In this document: piece by piece, positions 1-5,954 of the stretch
Position numbering within the stretch: position 1 is the stretch's first letter
Layout: each line of letters begins with the position of its first letter
IMG/VR virus record: IMGVR_UViG_2684622669_000017
DNA: 5,954 nucleotides
DNA from: a virus
Taxonomy: Duplodnaviria > Heunggongvirae > Uroviricota > Caudoviricetes
Reading direction: 5' to 3' (one strand)
Notes under the pieces: generated by a model
Database searches by the model: none
What the model was told of the DNA's origin: nothing
The model's input: only the letters and a program-made list of their open reading frames with translations
Made by a program: the position numbers and the translations under genes

Positions 1-108
1 CGGCAGGGGAACCGCCATACTCGCCGTTGCCATTTGTGTCCCCTTGCTGGTGGTCTTTAACTGCGGGTCAGTCGCCAGCCGCCCGTAAGCTGCTATCTGT
101 GCTGTCAT
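1..108 (-). CDS. Partial CDS (5' end only, continues past the left window edge): probable single-stranded-DNA-binding (SSB-like, OB-fold) protein
   Basis: Minus-strand ATG at 108..106 overlaps the TGA stop of the upstream ORF (ATGA). Translation MTAQIAAYGRLATDPQLKTTSKGTQMATASMAVPLP stays open to position 1. The G-R-L-x-x-D-P-x-L...G...A-x-x-S-x-A-V pattern resembles the N-terminus of bacterial/phage SSB. Absent from the ORF track because it is truncated. Confidence 0.4.
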   Translation of the reverse strand, partial: MTAQIAAYGRLATDPQLKTTSKGTQMATASMAVPLP

Positions 109-356
109 GTTGTCTGCTCTCCGGTTTTAACGTTGATGGTTGTCACCTGTTCCGCTTCGGCAATCTCCCGTTCTGTCAGCGTGGCAAAGTTTGCCGCCGC
201 CGTGGTCATGAATGCGCTTATCAGTTCGGGATGTGCTTTCGCGTATCCTTCCCCGGCATGGCGGTCTATCGTTCTGATTGCCACCTTTAAGGCGTGCTCT
301 GTCATGTCTAATGCGCGATATTTTGGTGCTGTCTTATCTCTGGTTTTTCTGGTCAT
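105..356 (-). CDS. Hypothetical protein (83 aa), function unknown; translationally coupled to the downstream SSB-like gene
   Basis: ORF track; ATG at 356..354 preceded on the minus strand by AGAGGTGAGGA (SD-like, itself part of an iteron); protein-like composition; stop TGA overlaps the next start. Alternative in-frame ATG at 305..303 (MTEHALK...) has no SD. Confidence 0.5.
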   Translation of the reverse strand: MTRKTRDKTAPKYRALDMTEHALKVAIRTIDRHAGEGYAKAHPELISAFMTTAAANFATLTEREIAEAEQVTTINVKTGEQTT

Positions 357-560
357 TCCTCACCTCTACTCACTTTTATTCCTCACTTTTTGTTATTCCC
401 GTCCTGCTCCTCACCTGTTTTTTTTGCTTCTGTAATGCGTTGTTTTGCAATGTATTTTTTATTCCTCACTTTTTGACCTATATACAGGTGAGAAAGTGAG
501 GAATAGCGCTGATTTTTTGTTAAATTACCCGCTATCCTCACTTTTGCTCCTCACTTTTTA
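355..560. repeat. Iteron array with AT-rich core: putative origin of replication of the element
   Basis: Direct copies of (A)TTCCTCAC(T)TTTT(G) at 355-363, 369-377 (partial CTCACTTTT), 378-392, 409-414 (followed by T8 at 418-425), 461-475, 533-546 and 547-559. One inverted copy AAAGTGAGGAAT at 493-504. CACCTG (412-417) and CAGGTG (485-490) form an inverted pair flanking an AT-rich stretch 418-484. Lies immediately 3' of the helicase gene; the last iteron overlaps its stop codon. Confidence 0.7.
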
Positions 561-1973
561 CAGTGGGCGCACATAATCACCGTCAATAGCGATTACGCCG
601 TCGCTTTCCAGCTTGTACAGCCAGCGCCGGAAGTTTTTCATTTCATACCCCAGCTTTTTCATATCGTCGCGGAGAAGGGCGATAGTGCACGCCTCCCCGT
701 GTGCTGTTCGCGTTCTGATGCACTGCCATAGCGCGGCATGATTCTCCGTCTTGTTCCCGGCCTCCTCGATGCGCTCCAGTTCAACAGGTGGGCGCGGCTT
801 ATCCACAACCACCAGCGACGTGATTAACTCCCCGTCAGTGTCGGTAAAAAGCTCCACCACGCGTAAATCGTATGCAGCCTCTTTCAGTTCCTCCGCGTCC
901 TTCATTTTGGTGCAGGAGATAACCAGGGCTTCACTGTCTGCACCTTCACGGCGAATACGGTATTCAGCGTCCAGAGATGCACGAAATGCACTGGAACCAC
1001 GCGCCCCCTTTGTTTCATCCTTGCCGGAATGGTGAACCACCAGCACCGTGGCCCCTGTGCGTCGTTTCAGTTCGTCACATCCACGGATAAACGCCCCCAT
1101 ATCCCGCGCGTCATTTTCATCATTACCGCCAAAACACCGCGCCAGCGTATCCAGAATAATCATGCGTACCGGTTTACCCGTTTCCCTTTCAACCTGGCGG
1201 GAAGCGATGACCATTTCATCAACATCAAACTGGGCTGCCGGAAAAATCGGGCGGTTTACCAGGTACAGATTTTCCACCCGTTTATCATTAACGATTTCCC
1301 ATGCCTTGATACGGCGGGGGACACCAATGCCACCTTCACCGACGACATACATCACCGAACCATGCGCCACCCTGCGGCCTCCCCAGTGACGGCCAGTGGC
1401 AACATGACACGCCCAGGAACACGCGAGGAACGATTTATAGGAACCGCTCGCGCCGTATGTGCTGCACAATGAATTAGCCGGAATCACGCCCTTAACGACA
1501 TAATCAAGCTGTGTGTCGTACCCTGCAGATCCAATGCTCATTGGTAGCGTGGTTTTTCGCTGGCTGTATTGCTCGTCAGTAAGTATTTCCCCGCGCTCTG
1601 CCTGTTCGCGGATCCGTTGCAGGTAGTCGTGCCAGTTCTCCAGCTTCTGGCTGTGCATTCCATCAGGGTAATAATTCGCATCCCGTACACCTGCCGCCGC
1701 CAGCTTTTGCCCGATAGCATTAATATTTGACGGCTTGATGTGGCCTGCCTTGTACAGCCGGACACAATAGCGACCATCGTCGATGATTTTCAGGTCTGCC
1801 AGTTCGTCAAGCTGGCTGTCTCCAAGCCATACGGGTGGCACGTTGTCGCCAGCAAGTCGCCCGTCCTGTTCCTGCCATTGTTTCGCGTGCGCCCAGGCAT
1901 CACTACCCGCAAAAATAATGACTTCGGTCATTTTGTCGTGTGGCTGTTTTTTTAAGTTCGGTGCCAGTTTCAT
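558..1973 (-). CDS. RepA-like replicative helicase / replication initiator, AAA_25 (RecA-fold) ATPase family, with C-terminal putative winged-helix DNA-binding region
   Basis: 471-aa ORF, ATG at 1973..1971 with AGGGT SD-like 5 nt upstream, ATGA overlap with the upstream ORF stop. Motifs: P-loop-like VIPANSLCSTYGASGSYKSFLA (Walker A variant with Y in place of the second Gly, verified on the DNA as TAT), Walker B MIILDTL, and VLVVHHSGKD characteristic of RepA/AAA_25 helicases. Iterons lie immediately downstream. Confidence 0.8.
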   Translation of the reverse strand: MKLAPNLKKQPHDKMTEVIIFAGSDAWAHAKQWQEQDGRLAGDNVPPVWLGDSQLDELADLKIIDDGRYCVRLYKAGHIKPSNINAIGQKLAAAGVRDANYYPDGMHSQKLENWHDYLQRIREQAERGEILTDEQYSQRKTTLPMSIGSAGYDTQLDYVVKGVIPANSLCSTYGASGSYKSFLACSWACHVATGRHWGGRRVAHGSVMYVVGEGGIGVPRRIKAWEIVNDKRVENLYLVNRPIFPAAQFDVDEMVIASRQVERETGKPVRMIILDTLARCFGGNDENDARDMGAFIRGCDELKRRTGATVLVVHHSGKDETKGARGSSAFRASLDAEYRIRREGADSEALVISCTKMKDAEELKEAAYDLRVVELFTDTDGELITSLVVVDKPRPPVELERIEEAGNKTENHAALWQCIRTRTAHGEACTIALLRDDMKKLGYEMKNFRRWLYKLESDGVIAIDGDYVRPL

Positions 1974-2269
1974 TTTTTACCCCTGAATGCGTTAATCATG
2001 TTTTTCATTTTCTGAATATTTGCCCGTGCCTTTGCGTTGCTGGTGGGCTGTTTGCGTGGTGTGGCCTGTATCAGTGAAAAATCACGCCGGAACTGATAAA
2101 CAGGCATCACGCAGTCATAACCGTACCCATCACGGCGGTAAGTAACGCACCGTCCCGCCACGCTTTTAATCGTTACCGTGCCGCCGTAGTTATCCCGGAA
2201 AATATCGCCGGGGCGGATTTCAGGCCGAGCGGGGCCGCTGGCAGTAAAGCCAGAATTTTTCTTTTTCAT
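1970..2269 (-). CDS. Hypothetical protein (99 aa), function unknown; translationally coupled to the helicase gene
   Basis: ORF track; ATG at 2269..2267 preceded by GAGGAA 7 nt upstream; TGA stop overlaps the helicase ATG (ATGA). No recognisable motif. Confidence 0.6.
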   Translation of the reverse strand: MKKKNSGFTASGPARPEIRPGDIFRDNYGGTVTIKSVAGRCVTYRRDGYGYDCVMPVYQFRRDFSLIQATPRKQPTSNAKARANIQKMKNMINAFRGKK

Positions 2270-2339
2270 GGTTTTTATTCCTCTGCGCGGGTCTTGTCGT
2301 GTATTTCCATAACCGCGTTTAATTCATCAATAACCGGGG

Positions 2340-2483
2340 TTAACAGAGTGCTGAAAGCAGAAAGTAAATACCCCCCCGCTCGGTGTTATTTTCGGTTAAT
2401 TCATCCAGTACCGTTTTTAATTCAAGCGCCCTGATTAATGCATTCTCAGAATGAATAAGAACATCGAAAGGGATTTTATCCAT
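2340..2483 (-). CDS. Small hypothetical ORF (47 aa as sequenced); would be 69 aa ending at 2275 if the G7 tract were G8
   Basis: ATG at 2483..2481 with GGAGGA 8 nt upstream, overlapping the stop of the upstream ORF (ATGGATAA). Translation MDKIPFDVLIHSENALIRALELKTVLDELTENNTERGGIYFLLSALC. A +1 change in the homopolymer at 2371-2377 extends the reading frame to a TAA at 2275-2277, directly in front of the RBS of the next gene. Below the ORF-track length cutoff. Confidence 0.4.
   Translation of the reverse strand: MDKIPFDVLIHSENALIRALELKTVLDELTENNTERGGIYFLLSALC
2371..2377. repeat. C7 (plus) / G7 (mRNA) homopolymer inside a coding region; candidate frameshift site
   Basis: cccccccg at 2371-2378; read directly from the sequence. 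Confidence 0.9.
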
Positions 2484-2709
2484 GGCTTACATCCTCCGGG
2501 AATTTTCTTCTGTAACGCGCCTCTGCCACATATTCAGCATAGTCCGACGCAATAACGAGAATATCGCTGCCTGTTCCTGAATGCTCAGTGGTTCCAATTA
2601 AAAAACATGCGGCCTTTATCAGGTCATTAACAACCAGCAACGCATCACCCGCATCATCCGATACGCCATCAAATTCCTGTTTCAGGGCATTAAAACGATC
2701 ATCACGCAT
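2476..2709 (-). CDS. Hypothetical protein (77 aa); possibly the C-terminal part of a gene split by the G9 tract
   Basis: ORF track; ATG at 2709..2707 lies 2 nt after the G9 run (the run could act as an SD but the spacing is short); overlaps the 3' end of the upstream ORF by 28 nt in another frame. Confidence 0.5.
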   Translation of the reverse strand: MRDDRFNALKQEFDGVSDDAGDALLVVNDLIKAACFLIGTTEHSGTGSDILVIASDYAEYVAEARYRRKFPEDVSHG

Positions 2710-2942
2710 AACCCCCCCCCATTTTCACAATCAGCAATCAGGATGGCTTTGGCCTCATTCAGTGCCATATCAGCGGTAAGCTGTGCGTAGGCCAGCGAAT
2801 GGGGGATTATTGCCCCTGTATACTCCGGCTCTCTGGTAATGTGTTTTTCTGCGGTTGCTGCCGTGCATGAAATATCAATCAGCGCGCGCATTAGCGTTCT
2901 GATAGCTTCGTCGGCTGCGTCCGGACGGGTGTTATTGCACAT
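2682..2942 (-). CDS. Hypothetical protein (86 aa); possibly the N-terminal part of a gene split by the G9 tract
   Basis: ORF track; ATG at 2942..2940 with GGAGG 6 nt upstream; start overlaps the stop of the Icd-like gene (ATGTGCAATAA). The final 9 codons after the G9 tract (LCVMIVLMP) look like out-of-frame read-through. Confidence 0.55.
   Translation of the reverse strand: MCNNTRPDAADEAIRTLMRALIDISCTAATAEKHITREPEYTGAIIPHSLAYAQLTADMALNEAKAILIADCENGGGLCVMIVLMP
2712..2720. repeat. C9 (plus) / G9 (mRNA) homopolymer at the junction of two overlapping ORFs; candidate frameshift, slippage or sequencing-error site
   Basis: accccccccc at 2711-2720; read directly from the sequence. One extra G would fuse ORF 2682..2942 to ORF 2476..2709 (...DCENGGG-VMRDDRFNALK...), giving about 151 aa. 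Confidence 0.9.
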
Positions 2943-3138
2943 GGTGCACCTCCTGACGAATACGGGCGGCGAATACCATCACGCAGCCAGCCGGTGATTG
3001 TTGACGGGCTTCCTGTTCGCTGGTGGCCACGATGTGAATCACGCGCGGTTGTGCCGTGCTCAGGGCGATAAAACGCCAGATGTATTTATTCAGGTTGTGC
3101 GAGTCCCGCCCTTGCGGGTGTGTGGTATGATTTCTCAT
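2932..3138 (-). CDS. Small protein (68 aa) resembling Icd-like (host cell-division inhibitor-like) proteins of P4-type elements; first gene of the leftward operon
   Basis: ATG at 3138..3136 with GAGGT 4 nt upstream. Translation MRNHTTHPQGRDSHNLNKYIWRFIALSTAQPRVIHIVATSEQEARQQSPAGCVMVFAARIRQEVHHVQ. The W-R-F-x-A...ATSEQEAR...FAAR pattern matches, from memory, the Icd-like small-protein family. It is the 3' end of a 356-aa ORF-track entry whose upstream part I consider non-coding. Confidence 0.55.
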   Translation of the reverse strand: MRNHTTHPQGRDSHNLNKYIWRFIALSTAQPRVIHIVATSEQEARQQSPAGCVMVFAARIRQEVHHVQ

Positions 3139-3175
3139 AGCTACCTCGATACTTCTGCTATCGTTGGTGGTTAGA

Positions 3176-3209
3176 AGCCCTGCGAGTGGTAACGACACTT
3201 GCGGGGCTT
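3176..3209 (-). promoter_or_regulatory. 13-bp imperfect inverted repeat (AGCCCTGCGAGTG-N8-CACTTGCGGGGCT) in the predicted 5' leader of the leftward operon
   Basis: Read from sequence; 11/13 Watson-Crick matches, and both mismatches become G.U pairs in RNA; lies between the predicted leftward promoter and the Icd-like RBS. Confidence 0.45.
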
Positions 3210-3230
3210 TGCATTTATGCGCCTTGATAA

Positions 3231-3271
3231 TTTTAAGGTGTGGCCCACTATATGTTTTAGGTGTGGTCCAC
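3231..3271. promoter_or_regulatory. Tandem operator-like repeats TTTTA(A)GGTGTGG(C/T)CCAC, each containing a GTGG-N-CCAC palindrome
   Basis: Repeat 1 at 3231-3248 (palindrome GTGGCCCAC 3240-3248), repeat 2 at 3255-3271 (GTGGTCCAC 3263-3271), period about 24 bp. They overlap the -10 and spacer of the predicted leftward promoter and lie upstream of the RHH gene. Confidence 0.55.
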
Positions 3272-3276
3272 GTCAA
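3247..3276 (-). promoter_or_regulatory. Predicted sigma70 promoter for the leftward Icd-like/helicase operon (TTGACG-N18-TATAGT)
   Basis: Minus-strand -35 TTGACG (3276..3271) and -10 TATAGT (3252..3247) with an 18-nt spacer; predicted TSS near 3240; both operator repeats overlap it. Confidence 0.5.
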
Positions 3277-3337
3277 GAGTTTTATTTGTGCTTTTTCTGT
3301 GTATACTGTCCCCCACCAATCCACCAGAGGAATAGAA

Positions 3338-3517
3338 ATGGCAACGGGTACAACAAACGCAAAATCACAAGCTCTAAAGGCTCGTGTACCACACGAAATA
3401 GTAAACGCCATGGAATCAGTGAAAGAATCAGGCGAAAGCACATCACAATTCATCATTACGTCAATGCAAGGCGAGATCAAACGCCGCCAGCGGCGCAAGG
3501 CCAAAGAGCAGGAGTAA
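3338..3517 (+). CDS. Ribbon-helix-helix (Arc/MetJ/CopG-like) DNA-binding protein, 59 aa; candidate repressor of the divergent promoter
   Basis: ATG at 3338 with GAGG 7 nt upstream. Translation MATGTTNAKSQALKARVPHEIVNAMESVKESGESTSQFIITSMQGEIKRRQRRKAKEQE. Beta-strand (LKARVP) - helix A (HEIVNAMESVKES) - G-x-S turn - helix B matches the RHH signature (compare Arc NLRWPREVLDLVRKVAEENGRSVNSEIYQRVME). Palindromic repeats lie upstream. Confidence 0.65.
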   Translation: MATGTTNAKSQALKARVPHEIVNAMESVKESGESTSQFIITSMQGEIKRRQRRKAKEQE

Positions 3518-3574
3518 CCATCACCAGCGCCGTGGTGTGAGTAACTACGGCGCATTGCTATGCAGGACAACACA

Positions 3575-3748
3575 ATGACCGATAAAGAATTGACCAAAAC
3601 ATTATCACCGGCACGGAAAAGACGGCGCAGAAAGATAGAACATGAATCAGAAAGATTCGCACCTTGTTCGTTTGCTCTTGAGAAATTCCTTAAAGAGCAC
3701 AGGAAAAAGCTCTCGTTGCAAACCTTGGAACGAACCAAATCTGACTGA
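3575..3748 (+). CDS. Small basic protein (57 aa; 62 aa if translation starts at the upstream ATG 3560), function unknown
   Basis: ATG at 3575 preceded by AGGA (3564-3567) with 7-nt spacing; the ORF-track start at 3560 lacks an SD. Translation MTDKELTKTLSPARKRRRRKIEHESERFAPCSFALEKFLKEHRKKLSLQTLERTKSD; same frame as the RHH gene but separated by two stop codons. Confidence 0.45.
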   Translation: MTDKELTKTLSPARKRRRRKIEHESERFAPCSFALEKFLKEHRKKLSLQTLERTKSD

Positions 3749-3827
3749 TCACATTGCCCACCAGCCGCAAATGTGGCATTGTTGGTGATGCTCATACGTT
3801 GGGGATAACGTGTAGCTTGTGTCGAGG

Positions 3828-3855
3828 GGCCACCGTAGCGGTTGGCCTTTGTTTT
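3828..3855 (+). terminator. Probable intrinsic terminator of the RHH/small-protein operon
   Basis: Hairpin GGCCACCG-tag-CGGTTGGCC (8 bp with one bulge) followed by TTTGTTTT (3848-3855). Confidence 0.45.
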
Positions 3856-3872
3856 GCCTGTTATCCGGCAAT

Positions 3873-3902
3873 TGTGGCGCTTCGCCACACGGTTGATATA
3901 AT
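3873..3902 (+). promoter_or_regulatory. Extended -10 promoter (TGaTATAAT at 3894-3902) overlapped by a perfect 7-bp-arm palindrome TGTGGCG-CTT-CGCCACA (3873-3889)
   Basis: Perfect TATAAT at 3897-3902 preceded by TG at 3894-3895; -35 is weak (TTGTGG 3872-3877, 19-nt spacer); the palindrome occupies the -35/spacer region like an operator. Confidence 0.4.
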
Positions 3903-3908
3903 TCCCCT

Positions 3909-3979
3909 GCACTGATCCATTTTTTTCGCAGCAGGTTAATTGTTCGCAAGGGCGCTCCGGTAACGGGGCGCTTTTTGTT
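3909..3979 (+). ncRNA. Candidate small RNA (about 70 nt) between its own promoter and an intrinsic terminator
   Basis: Predicted TSS about 7 nt after the TATAAT; transcript ends at the 3952-3979 terminator; no ORF with an RBS in between; contains a possible 5' hairpin CCTGC...GCAGG. Entirely inferential. Confidence 0.3.
3952..3979 (+). terminator. Intrinsic terminator (plus strand): GC-rich 8-bp stem with GUAA tetraloop and U-tract
   Basis: GCGCTCCG-gtaa-CGGGGCGC (one U.G pair) followed by TTTTTGTT (3972-3979). On the minus strand the hairpin is not followed by a T-run, so it is unidirectional. Confidence 0.55.
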
Positions 3980-4006
3980 ATGTTCATCGCGTTACGCCTC
4001 ACACCA

Positions 4007-4213
4007 TTACGCAGCCGTTCCGCGCGCTTCTTCCTCGCGCTCTTTCAGCCAGGCCAGCACTTCATCTTCATACCAGCCAACACGACGCAGACCGATTTTG
4101 AATCCTTTCGGGAATTTTCCGGCGTTGATCATGTCCTGTAGCGAACTGTCTGCCTTGATGCGCAGAATATTTTTTACTTCCTGACGGGTAAGTATTTTTC
4201 TGATTGTTTCCAC
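4007..4213 (-). CDS. alpA: AlpA-family phage regulatory protein (transcriptional activator / excisionase-like, winged HTH)
   Basis: 68-aa ORF starting at GTG 4213..4211 with GAGGT 8 nt upstream. Translation ...ILTRQEVKNILRIKADSSLQDMINAGKFPKGFKIGLRRVGWYEDEVLAWLKER aligns with E. coli AlpA motifs (FPK, VGW, E-x-E-[IV]-x-x-W-L). Confidence 0.8.
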   Translation of the reverse strand: METIRKILTRQEVKNILRIKADSSLQDMINAGKFPKGFKIGLRRVGWYEDEVLAWLKEREEEARGTAA

Positions 4214-4348: not shown

Positions 4349-4377
4349 AAAAAAATAGCGACCGCAAAGGGCCGCTA
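4349..4377 (-). terminator. Intrinsic terminator downstream of the int / 76-aa ORF transcription unit
   Basis: Minus-strand hairpin TAGCGGCC-ctttgc-GGTCGCTA (one mismatch) followed by TTTTTTT (plus-strand A7 at 4349-4355), 7 nt after the ORF stop. Confidence 0.55.
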
Positions 4378-4383
4378 TTGTGA

Positions 4384-4712: not shown

Positions 4713-5954
4713 TTACACGGCACGGATACCCCTTTTACCACTGGCTATGGTCACTCCGGTAGCTGCGGCCTCTACAAATTCCCCCCACCAGCGCATAAGC
4801 ACCACGCGCTTTTCCAGGTAGTTACTTCGGTTATATGCTCGCCTTACCTCGTTCGTGTCCACGTGTGCGAGTGCGGCCTCGATTACGTCCGGCTCGAATC
4901 CTTCCTCGTTCGCTGCTGTACTGAATATGGCGCGTAATCCGTGAGACACCAGCACACCAGCGTAACCCATCCGGCGTAATGCAGCGTTAGCGGTCTGGCT
5001 GCTCATTGGTAGCATTGGATTTTTAAGGCTGGGAAAAACATGTTCCCTGTGTGCGCTGATTGGCTTCATGGTTTCCAGTACAGCCATAGCCTGACCGCAA
5101 AGGGGGATCACATGGTCACGGCGCATCTTCATGCGTCCGGCTGGAATCGTCCAGGTTTCGGCATCGAGATCTATTTCTTCCCAGCGTGCGGCGGCTGCTT
5201 CGGCTGGGCGTGCTACGGTCAACAGTTGCCACTCGATCAGCAATCTGGTTTGCCGTTCTATGCTGGCGACCGATAAATCGTGCATTAGCTGCGGTAGCTG
5301 TTCCGGTCGGATGGTTGGCATGTGCTTTTTGGTGGGTGAGGGAAATGCCTTGCGGACGTTAGCAGCGGTGTTGATGTCAATCAGCCCACTGTTGGCGGCA
5401 AAATCCATCACTTCATTGATGCGCTGCAAAACGCGTTTCAGAGTTTCCAGGTTGCCGCGTGCTTTAATGGGTGTGAGTATCTCAACAAAGCGGCGAGCGG
5501 TGAGGGTATCTATTGGCGTTTTTCCGATGTACGGGAATACGTATTTTTCCATGGATCGCCAGATATCCTTAATCGTGTTGTAAGCGAGATTCTGGCCTTT
5601 TTTCATCTCGTACCAGTCAGAGGCAACTTTTTCGAACGTGTTGCCCTTTTTCCGACTCTCTGCTTCACGTTTCCGGCGTTCGTGGTCCTGTGGGTCAACT
5701 CCCTTCGCTATGAGTGACCTGTATTCATTCCGTCGTTCTCTGGCATCGGACAGGGAAACATCATTCAGCGATCCGAGGCTGATGATAGTCCGTTTTTTAT
5801 CTGCCGGGCGGTAGTACGTAAAACGCCAGATTTTTGATCCGGAGGGTTTCACCAGAAGAAATAATCCTCCGCCATCCTGCAGGGTGTATTCCTTTTCCCC
5901 TGGTCGTGCGTTTTTGATCTCCGTAATAGTTAGTGGGGTGGTTTTTCGTGCCAT
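4713..5954 (-). CDS. int: Site-specific tyrosine recombinase/integrase, P4 family (N-terminal arm-binding DUF4102-type domain plus catalytic domain)
   Basis: 413-aa ORF; ATG is the last three nucleotides of the window (5954..5952); TAA at 4715..4713. N-terminus MARKTTPLTITEIKNARPGEKEYTLQDGGGLFLLVKPSGSKIWRFTYY is typical of P4-type integrases (compare E. coli IntA). Catalytic motifs are present: R in TVARPAE, HGLRAIF (H-x-x-R), and tyrosine in RRAYNRSNY. Confidence 0.92.
   Translation of the reverse strand: MARKTTPLTITEIKNARPGEKEYTLQDGGGLFLLVKPSGSKIWRFTYYRPADKKRTIISLGSLNDVSLSDARERRNEYRSLIAKGVDPQDHERRKREAESRKKGNTFEKVASDWYEMKKGQNLAYNTIKDIWRSMEKYVFPYIGKTPIDTLTARRFVEILTPIKARGNLETLKRVLQRINEVMDFAANSGLIDINTAANVRKAFPSPTKKHMPTIRPEQLPQLMHDLSVASIERQTRLLIEWQLLTVARPAEAAAARWEEIDLDAETWTIPAGRMKMRRDHVIPLCGQAMAVLETMKPISAHREHVFPSLKNPMLPMSSQTANAALRRMGYAGVLVSHGLRAIFSTAANEEGFEPDVIEAALAHVDTNEVRRAYNRSNYLEKRVVLMRWWGEFVEAAATGVTIASGKRGIRAV

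Follow-up and report, generated by a model that had tools for sequence, protein, structure and literature searches.

The rep gene and its putative origin

The 5954-nucleotide stretch of viral DNA held as IMG/VR record IMGVR_UViG_2684622669_000017 (the window, taken at its full length) carries rep, the replication gene of a phage satellite. The gene lies on the minus strand, and an array of short repeats, or iterons, directly follows its stop codon. The parts of this region, with the evidence for each, are as follows.

558..1973 including the stop codon, minus strand: rep, coding for a 471-amino-acid protein, a probable initiator-helicase made of an N-domain, an SF4 RepA-like core, and a C-terminal domain (list of open reading frames, AAA_25, phrog_2850)
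1584..1973, minus strand: N-domain, amino acids 1–130, an alpha/beta domain with a predicted Toprim-like fold, common to other replicases of this satellite class
789..1526, minus strand: RecA-fold SF4 helicase core, amino acids about 150–395 (Pfam AAA_25 and the residues invariant in 139 representatives)
1431..1454, minus strand: Walker A motif GASGSYKS, amino acids 174–181, with the Tyr179 codon TAT at 1437–1439
1143..1163, minus strand: Walker B motif MIILDTL, with D275, within VRMIILDTL (translation; D275 and T276 invariant in 139/139)
1029..1034, minus strand: HH of VVHHSGK (H314–H315, motif H3), within VLVVHHSGK, aligned with the HH of RSF1010 RepA
561..776, minus strand: C-terminal domain, amino acids 400–471, predicted three helices and a beta hairpin, a putative winged-helix iteron reader (AlphaFold2 topology)
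357..555, unstranded: putative replication origin, eight copies of AGTGAGGA with at most one mismatch (repeat counts and the same layout in six relatives)

A preliminary description, made from the letters of the DNA and its open reading frames (ORFs), had seen here a 471-residue RecA-fold, AAA_25-like protein with a MIILDTL Walker B and a VVHHSGK motif. Both motifs are present in the translation, and Rep amino acids 152–320 match Pfam AAA_25 with an E value of 1.6e-44 and a score of 152 bits, where the cut-off is 27. The PHROG profile phrog_2850 spans the full length of the protein (E 1e-247), and the RefSeq name for its relatives is “helicase RepA family protein.” By sequence, the closest solved structure is RSF1010 RepA (1g8y; E 0.026), whose GAGKS aligns with GSYKS of Rep. 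A Foldseek search of the full-length model against the PDB returned only weak RecA-like matches (T7 gp4, Rad51/RadA; E >1e-3), because the core was modeled with low confidence from a shallow alignment. Pfam and other profile scans of the window ORFs found no second replication enzyme, as the preliminary description had also noted. A reading of Rep as a defense ATPase was dropped because PADLOC found no defense-system match among nine ORFs.

All eight matches to AGTGAGGA in the window fall within the 199 bases from 357 to 555, whereas 2.66 would be expected over the whole 5954-base window. They form two direct groups that flank an A+T-rich center holding an inverted pair, and the array lies directly 3′ of the rep stop codon at 558. 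The same layout is kept 3′ of the homologous gene in six relatives (L001, L005, L009, L010, L011, and L012), whose iteron cores are the single-base variants AAAGTGAGG, AAAGTGGGG, or AAAGTGCGG. At the same place, the island EcCICFT073 has unrelated GGTAGACA/TGTCTACC iterons.

Island identity and cassette exchange

Rep lies among genes that place the element within a known class of satellites. The genes flanking rep and its iterons are these.

1970..2269, minus strand: DUF4222 gene, whose stop codon overlaps the rep start as ATGA (Pfam DUF4222, E 2e-24)
105..356, minus strand: conserved 83-amino-acid ORF of unknown function, between origin and SSB gene (phrog_1231, E 1e-50; also in L001, L005, L009, and L012)
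1..108, minus strand: 5′ end of the island gene for a single-stranded DNA-binding protein (SSB), leaving the window (annotation of a 96%-identical relative; PF00436 at the homologous position in L009; ATGA overlap)
4007..4213, minus strand: alpA-type regulator/excisionase gene (Pfam Phage_AlpA, E 4.5e-8)
4713..5954, minus strand: tyrosine integrase gene with Arm-DNA-bind_3, Phage_int_M, and Phage_integrase (Pfam; PRK09692, E 1e-167)

The closest relative, an island of Escherichia coli TUM1881 (L001), covers 91% of the window at 96% identity. It is about 10.5 kb long and lies between yejO and tRNA-Pro/yejM, with its integrase beside tRNA-Pro and yejM. Its genes run from the integrase through a small ORF, an AlpA-type helix-turn-helix regulator, and Icd-like remnants to DUF4222, the “helicase RepA family protein,” a small ORF, SSB, a lambda-E-type major capsid gene, a head decoration gene, and terS. 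No tail genes, lysis genes, P4-alpha-type gene, or Psu, Delta, or Sid gene was found in this island. EcCICFT073 is the prototype of the Gram-negative phage-inducible chromosomal islands (PICIs), and a plasmid can replicate autonomously from its pri-rep-ori segment (Fillol-Salom et al. 2018, PMC6092414). We located it in NC_004431 (L004), where its gene order agrees with those of the window and of L001; its capsid and decoration genes are c1499 and c1500 (PMC6092414). Two other CFT073 regions considered for this island (L002 and L003) were rejected, as they hold a lambdoid prophage and unrelated genes.

The five core components of a PICI are an integrase, an AlpA-type regulator, a primase-replicase, a capsid-related gene, and terS (PMC10085698). 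The window shows the unidirectional order int-alpA-DUF4222-rep-ori-SSB, and the capsid, decoration, and terS genes are seen in L001. Given the gene content of L001 and the gene order of EcCICFT073, the element is by sequence an EcCICFT073-type PICI, for which helper-phage induction, replication, and packaging are predicted, and not a P4-type satellite. The P4 frame in which the preliminary description had set it thus falls away. Its remark that no P4 alpha primase is in view holds, and it extends beyond the window, since the 96%-identical L001 has none either. Its SSB-like gene is real although not directly adjacent to rep, the 83-amino-acid ORF lying between them.

Comparison with EcCICFT073 shows what has been exchanged. 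The two islands share their gene order, the upstream DUF4222 gene, the N-domain, and iterons directly 3′ of the replication gene, after which come a small ORF and SSB. By blastn, the window is homologous to the EcCICFT073 island at 11–317 (the start of SSB and the 83-amino-acid ORF), 1620–2280 (the N-domain and DUF4222), and 2641–3979, and no homology is found at 318–1619. The first 131 amino acids of Rep are 63% identical to amino acids 1–134 of the EcCICFT073 Pri-Rep, and nothing beyond is related: from about residue 130 the latter goes on to D5_N, DUF5906 (with the P-loop of an SF3 helicase), and Pox_D5, whereas Rep, in which the same Pfam scan found none of the three, continues with an SF4 AAA_25 core and an unrelated C-terminus. 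The iterons differ as well (GGTAGACA there, AAAGTGAGG here), as do the integrase and attachment site. Since this gap in homology lies between conserved flanks, the core, the C-terminal domain, and the intergenic repeats were exchanged as one cassette. It follows that iteron identity goes with the cassette and not with the N-domain; the N-domain was accordingly ruled out as reader of the origin, for EcCICFT073 shares it and yet has unrelated iterons.

Both partners of this fusion are common. N-domain DNA occurs in 1897 of 5426 complete E. coli genomes, and the DUF4222 gene precedes it in 39 of 40 sampled E. coli matches, the exception being a partial match of 35% coverage. Proteins carrying the N-domain are annotated as “helicase RepA family,” “DNA primase family,” “phage/plasmid primase, P4 family,” “DUF5906,” or “DUF927,” and in a third type DUF927 follows the domain (P0274; Klebsiella record L015). 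The RepA-type helicase part is present in 660 of the 5426 genomes (about 12%). Rep homologues of 60–75% identity are found in a classical PICI (L009), a Salmonella PICI (L012), and an Enterobacter element (L011), and another belongs to a capsid-forming PICI that encodes an HK97 capsid, a protease, and a portal (L010). In the Enterobacter cloacae case (L011), int, AlpA, DUF4222, and an AAA_25 rep lie in a prophage with its Phage_portal_2 gene on one side and its CLP_protease gene on the other (regions 1–3225 and 9062–10978), the layout of an island inside its helper prophage that has been termed a helper-embedded PICI (PMC10111431). The preliminary description had proposed a distinct replication module, possibly in a hybrid element. 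The module has indeed been swapped by cassette exchange, but its P4 setting was wrong and its frequency in E. coli makes it a common one.

Several observations concern the rest of the window. ATGA stop/start overlaps at 1970–1973 (DUF4222 and rep) and at 105–108 (the 83-amino-acid ORF and SSB) suggest translational coupling inside the replication module. Two minus-strand ORFs, 2682..2942 and 2476..2709, which together occupy 2476–2942, match the two halves of phrog_2512 (1–77 and 78–153). In the 96%-identical relative, the same region is a single 154-amino-acid gene with a run of seven G, whereas the window has nine at 2712–2720, a +2 homopolymer frameshift; slippage resembling phase variation, a pseudogene, or an error of sequencing could account for it. 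A minus-strand ORF of 356 amino acids at 2932–4002 is unlikely to be a gene: this stretch shares 94% identity with the accessory region of EcCICFT073, its counterpart there and in L001 holds short, partly pseudogenized Icd-like genes and an oppositely oriented YlcI/YnfO gene, and NCBIfam YlcI_YnfO_N matches amino acids 67–108 of the plus-strand ORF 3164..3517. The alpA gene is flanked by strong terminator-like hairpins at 3948–3975 (plus strand) and 4354–4379 (minus strand), of 12 and 10 pairs followed by T runs; in all, 19 terminator-like sites were found in the window against 8.0 expected.

The three modules of Rep

The preliminary description had singled out the P-loop of Rep as atypical. 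The deviation is real, and the TAT codon on the DNA agrees with it: GASGSYKS does not match the canonical Walker A GxxxxGK[ST], for although Lys and Ser are kept, the second Gly is replaced by Tyr. It is not, however, an oddity of this copy. The motif G[AP]SGSYKS occurs in 120 of 120 best Rep homologues (at least 60% identity; E. coli, Salmonella, Escherichia albertii, Citrobacter, and Enterobacter). An exhaustive homologue search over 1.84 billion cluster representatives returned 31,740 proteins at E ≤1e-3, and among the 139 representatives that cover the motif, drawn from the best 150 of these, the residue at 179 is Tyr (48), Phe (36), Gly (43), Leu (6), Cys (3), Ala (2), or Arg (1). Tyr or Phe is thus the clade norm (84/139), and the P-loop with Tyr that had been taken as peculiar is largely normal for the family. 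The aromatic state dominates above ~40% identity and is seen down to about 35%; non-Gly residues occupy the position in 96 of these 139 nearest representatives, so the deviation is the mark of a sub-clade rather than a trait of this copy. Judged from these alignments, Tyr179 is atypical among P-loop NTPases generally and normal for the Rep clade. No description of an aromatic Walker A in RepA/AAA_25 helicases was found in our literature collection, which was of limited extent.

The aromatic helicases stand behind varied N-termini, namely, a Zn-ribbon with Toprim_3, Prim-Pol with PriCT_2, DnaB_N, or none. One of them, P0233 (Zn-ribbon, Toprim_3, and AAA_25), matches Rep amino acids 127–466 (69% in phmmer, 62% in BLASTP) and shares the motif GASGSYKS. 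A homologous gene of a cultured Vibrio phage, annotated as a DnaB-like helicase, has GPGGSYKS, and a Caulobacter phage homologue has GASGSGKT. Across the 139 representatives, K180, S/T181, F182, E213, R221, D275–T276, E286–N287, H314–H315, and R325–G326 are invariant or nearly so, and E213, D275, H314/H315, and R325 are unchanged in 138–139 of 139 whatever the residue at 179. In RepA-type helicases, roles are assigned to the Walker A Lys, the motif 1a Glu, the Walker B Asp, and the motif 3 His (PMC8965321), and the invariant residues of Rep map onto these four. This pattern of conservation argues for an active enzyme. RSF1010 RepA, a hexameric 5′–3′ helicase, shares with Rep this RecA-fold SF4 core, including the HH motif. 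It differs in its length of 279 amino acids without N- or C-terminal domains, in its canonical GAGKS, in the weakness of the similarity, and in needing a separate initiator, RepC, and primase, RepB′.

The N-domain, modeled alone, is a four-stranded beta/alpha domain (pLDDT 91, pTM 0.86), and its model most resembles the Toprim domains of DnaG, T7 gp4, and Twinkle. No such link was found by sequence. Pfam Toprim models gave nothing significant, even at E values up to 10; a profile of the domain searched with hmmsearch against the primase regions of 42 related proteins gave nothing significant; and hhalign against the Toprim_3 alignment of related proteins returned a probability of 1.2%. When the alignment was widened with Pasteurella Pmp7 (28% identity) and with Klebsiella and E. 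coli satellite-like records, the invariant positions were A4, P5, K8, I19, A22, G23, A26, P47, V48, L50, Q54, L55, I63, and G77. None is acidic: E17 changes to D, D25 to S or G, and the DD at 65–66 varies. The preliminary description had tentatively seen a loose likeness to a Toprim-like E…DxD arrangement in this part of Rep (TEVIIFAGSD, amino acids 16–25, and KIIDDGR, amino acids 62–68). However, Ala22 in the loop FAGSDAW stands where Toprim has Glu, an EGYATA-type Glu is not matched, and Ala76–Gly77 follows strand 3 where Toprim has DxD. Of that proposal, the fold finds weak support in the structure model, and the catalytic motif is not conserved. The resemblance to T7 gp4, Twinkle, and the Zn-ribbon/Toprim_3/AAA_25 proteins such as P0233 therefore lies in a Toprim-like fold placed N-terminal to an SF4 helicase; Rep lacks their zinc ribbon, polymerase N-subdomain, conserved Glu and DxD, and detectable Toprim sequence similarity.

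From the alignment and the model, we take the N-domain, which most Gram-negative PICI replicases share, to be most likely a collar or adaptor that descends from a primase and no longer acts as one. Helicases of three classes carry it, and it is constantly paired with DUF4222, which suggests a partner shared by all. The extreme N-terminus of Rep (amino acids 1–10, nucleotides 1944–1973) reads M-K-x-A-P-N-[LV]-K and hardly varies, the Pasteurella homologues included (A4, P5, and K8); it may be a short docking motif, and no known motif was recognized in these residues. Two satellite-sized “phage” records, Pasteurella phage Pmp7 (L013, 10.7 kb) and Escherichia phage vB_KppS-Ant (L014, 16.5 kb), carry the N-domain with D5-type replicases beside an integrase, excisionase, or capsid gene, and look like PICI-type satellites recovered from induced lysates.

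The C-terminal 72 amino acids are modeled by AlphaFold2 with a pLDDT of about 90; the predicted order is three helices and then a hairpin (H-H-H-E-E). As this domain was exchanged together with the iterons, it is probably the part of Rep that reads them, by analogy with PICI Reps described below. The core hexamers GTGAGG, GTGGGG, and GTGCGG are one base apart among L009, L010, L011, L012, and the window array at 357–555, with the layout kept. In L010, the iteron change accompanies the substitution N447H, which falls seven positions ahead of the conserved RRWL, where the third of the predicted C-terminal helices (H448–457) begins; the two are a possible specificity pair.

Replication model and alternatives

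Taken together, these results make it likely that Rep is the replication initiator-helicase of an EcCICFT073-type PICI, with an N-domain, an SF4 core, and a C-terminal domain as its three modules. Helper-phage induction would be followed by excision of the island by AlpA and Int. Rep would then bind the AAAGTGAGG iterons that directly follow its gene on the 3′ side, with the C-terminal domain as the probable contact, melt the A+T-rich center, load itself as a hexamer, and unwind the DNA from 5′ to 3′. The single strands would be coated by the island SSB, and host DnaG and Pol III would provide priming and synthesis. The model for this scheme is the Reps of the staphylococcal islands (SaPIs). 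Rep1, PriRep5, and Rep2 are helicases that load themselves, and the iterons read by their C-terminal winged helix lie just 3′ of rep, around an AT-rich center (PMC9371898). Rep resembles them in its succession of N-terminal domain, ATPase, and C-terminal domain, in the two iteron groups around an A+T-rich center 3′ of the gene, and in serving as the predicted replicon of a phage-inducible island. It differs in that the SaPI proteins are SF3 or SF6 AAA+ enzymes of 3′–5′ polarity, whereas Rep has an SF4 RecA fold for which 5′–3′ polarity is expected; there is no sequence relationship between them. The module is best described as an ordinary, widespread SF4-type Rep-ori, an SF4 variant of a known PICI design.

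Several points weigh against this scheme. The characterized SF4 helicases, RSF1010 RepA and DnaB among them, use separate initiators or loaders, and a self-loading SF4 initiator is an extrapolation from the SF3 and SF6 PICI Reps. The winged-helix assignment of the C-terminal domain is drawn from its predicted topology, and sequence searches of this domain against Pfam and the PDB gave no match. The AlphaFold2 model of the helicase core is of low confidence, with pLDDT <50 around the P-loop, so that the geometry of Tyr179 cannot be read from it. Our literature search found no biochemical data for Rep or its close homologues; nor did the same literature collection yield a description of an SF4 PICI Rep.

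Three other readings of these data must be weighed. Rep could be a true primase-helicase, as the first description suggested, with the N-domain a minimal, divergent but active Toprim-type primase that makes the island self-priming. The fold is nearest to the Toprim domains of known primases or their relatives, the domain sits where close helicase homologues have Zn-ribbon and Toprim_3 or Prim-Pol domains, it is highly conserved, and neither the Pfam scan of the window nor the annotation of L001 gives the island another primase. Yet conservation has spared no acidic residue across the N-domains, A76–G77 occupies the place of DxD, a zinc-binding domain and the N-terminal subdomain of the DnaG polymerase domain are both missing, and the Toprim searches (Pfam, hmmsearch, and hhalign) gave no signal. 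Even the structural likeness is double-edged, since Twinkle, among the best matches, is commonly held to be no longer active as a primase in human. We therefore consider an active primase unlikely. It is less probable still that Tyr179 disables nucleotide binding or hydrolysis, leaving Rep a pseudo-helicase that marks the origin and recruits host DnaB/DnaC. To our knowledge, the Gly before the Walker A Lys is almost universal in P-loop NTPases, and its replacement in Rep, together with the GAGKS kept by the closest solved relative, is what gives this idea its appeal. But the invariance of K180, S/T181, E213, D275, H314/H315, and R325–G326 in representatives with Y, F, or G at 179 is unexpected for an inactivated ATPase, and the aromatic variant recurs in Toprim-, Prim-Pol-, and DnaB_N-fused architectures as well as in the DnaB-like helicase gene of a cultured phage.

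Least credible of all is a P4-type satellite, or a P4/PICI hybrid, whose alpha primase-helicase has been replaced. In P4, the alpha protein carries a D5-type SF3 helicase and an EGYATA Toprim primase domain. Like Rep, it is the replication protein of a satellite bearing an integrase and AlpA, and it joins helicase and origin binding in one chain, as is proposed for Rep; unlike alpha, Rep is without D5_N, Pox_D5, and DUF5906, and a search with the N-domain among phage records gave no P4 match. The P4-family-like integrase with Arm-DNA-bind_3, the AlpA regulator, and the Icd-like and Ash-like genes annotated in relatives speak for P4, but integrase, AlpA, and primase alone are not enough to tell P4 from PICI, according to the authors of SatelliteFinder (PMC10085698). 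What separates them here is the gene order of EcCICFT073 and the lambda-E-type capsid, decoration, and terS genes of L001, with its lack of Psu, Delta, Sid, and alpha. An Rfam scan of the window matched no family, P4-type C4/isrK RNAs included.

Beyond the initiator-helicase reading, the data admit a bolder proposal, which we offer tentatively and regard as rather doubtful. The motif GxSGS[YF]KS may define a large, unrecognized clade among the SF4 replicative helicases of phages and satellites, one whose aromatic side chain would alter nucleotide binding, for example, by base stacking, a changed NTP preference, or a gated P-loop. At the same time, the “pri” part of the Gram-negative PICI Pri-Rep, which about a third of E. 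coli genomes carry, may be no primase but a degenerate Toprim adaptor, through which helicases of three unrelated classes are joined to one shared partner, for instance, the DUF4222 protein, host DnaG, or SSB.

The rep gene of this window is unexceptional within a family that is common and has already been annotated, and its unusual features are family-wide. Annotations such as “DNA primase” and “P4-like” can be corrected: the shared “primase” N-domain lacks primase catalytic residues, and a whole clade of helicases tolerates Tyr or Phe at the Walker A Gly. The role of that aromatic residue and the function of the N-domain are the points of continuing interest. PICIs are widespread phage satellites that mobilize virulence and defense genes, and their replication has so far been studied only for SF3 and SF6 Reps and for the D5-type protein of EcCICFT073. 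About 12% of complete E. coli genomes hold an SF4 RepA-type alternative, which is exchanged with its own origin as one cassette.

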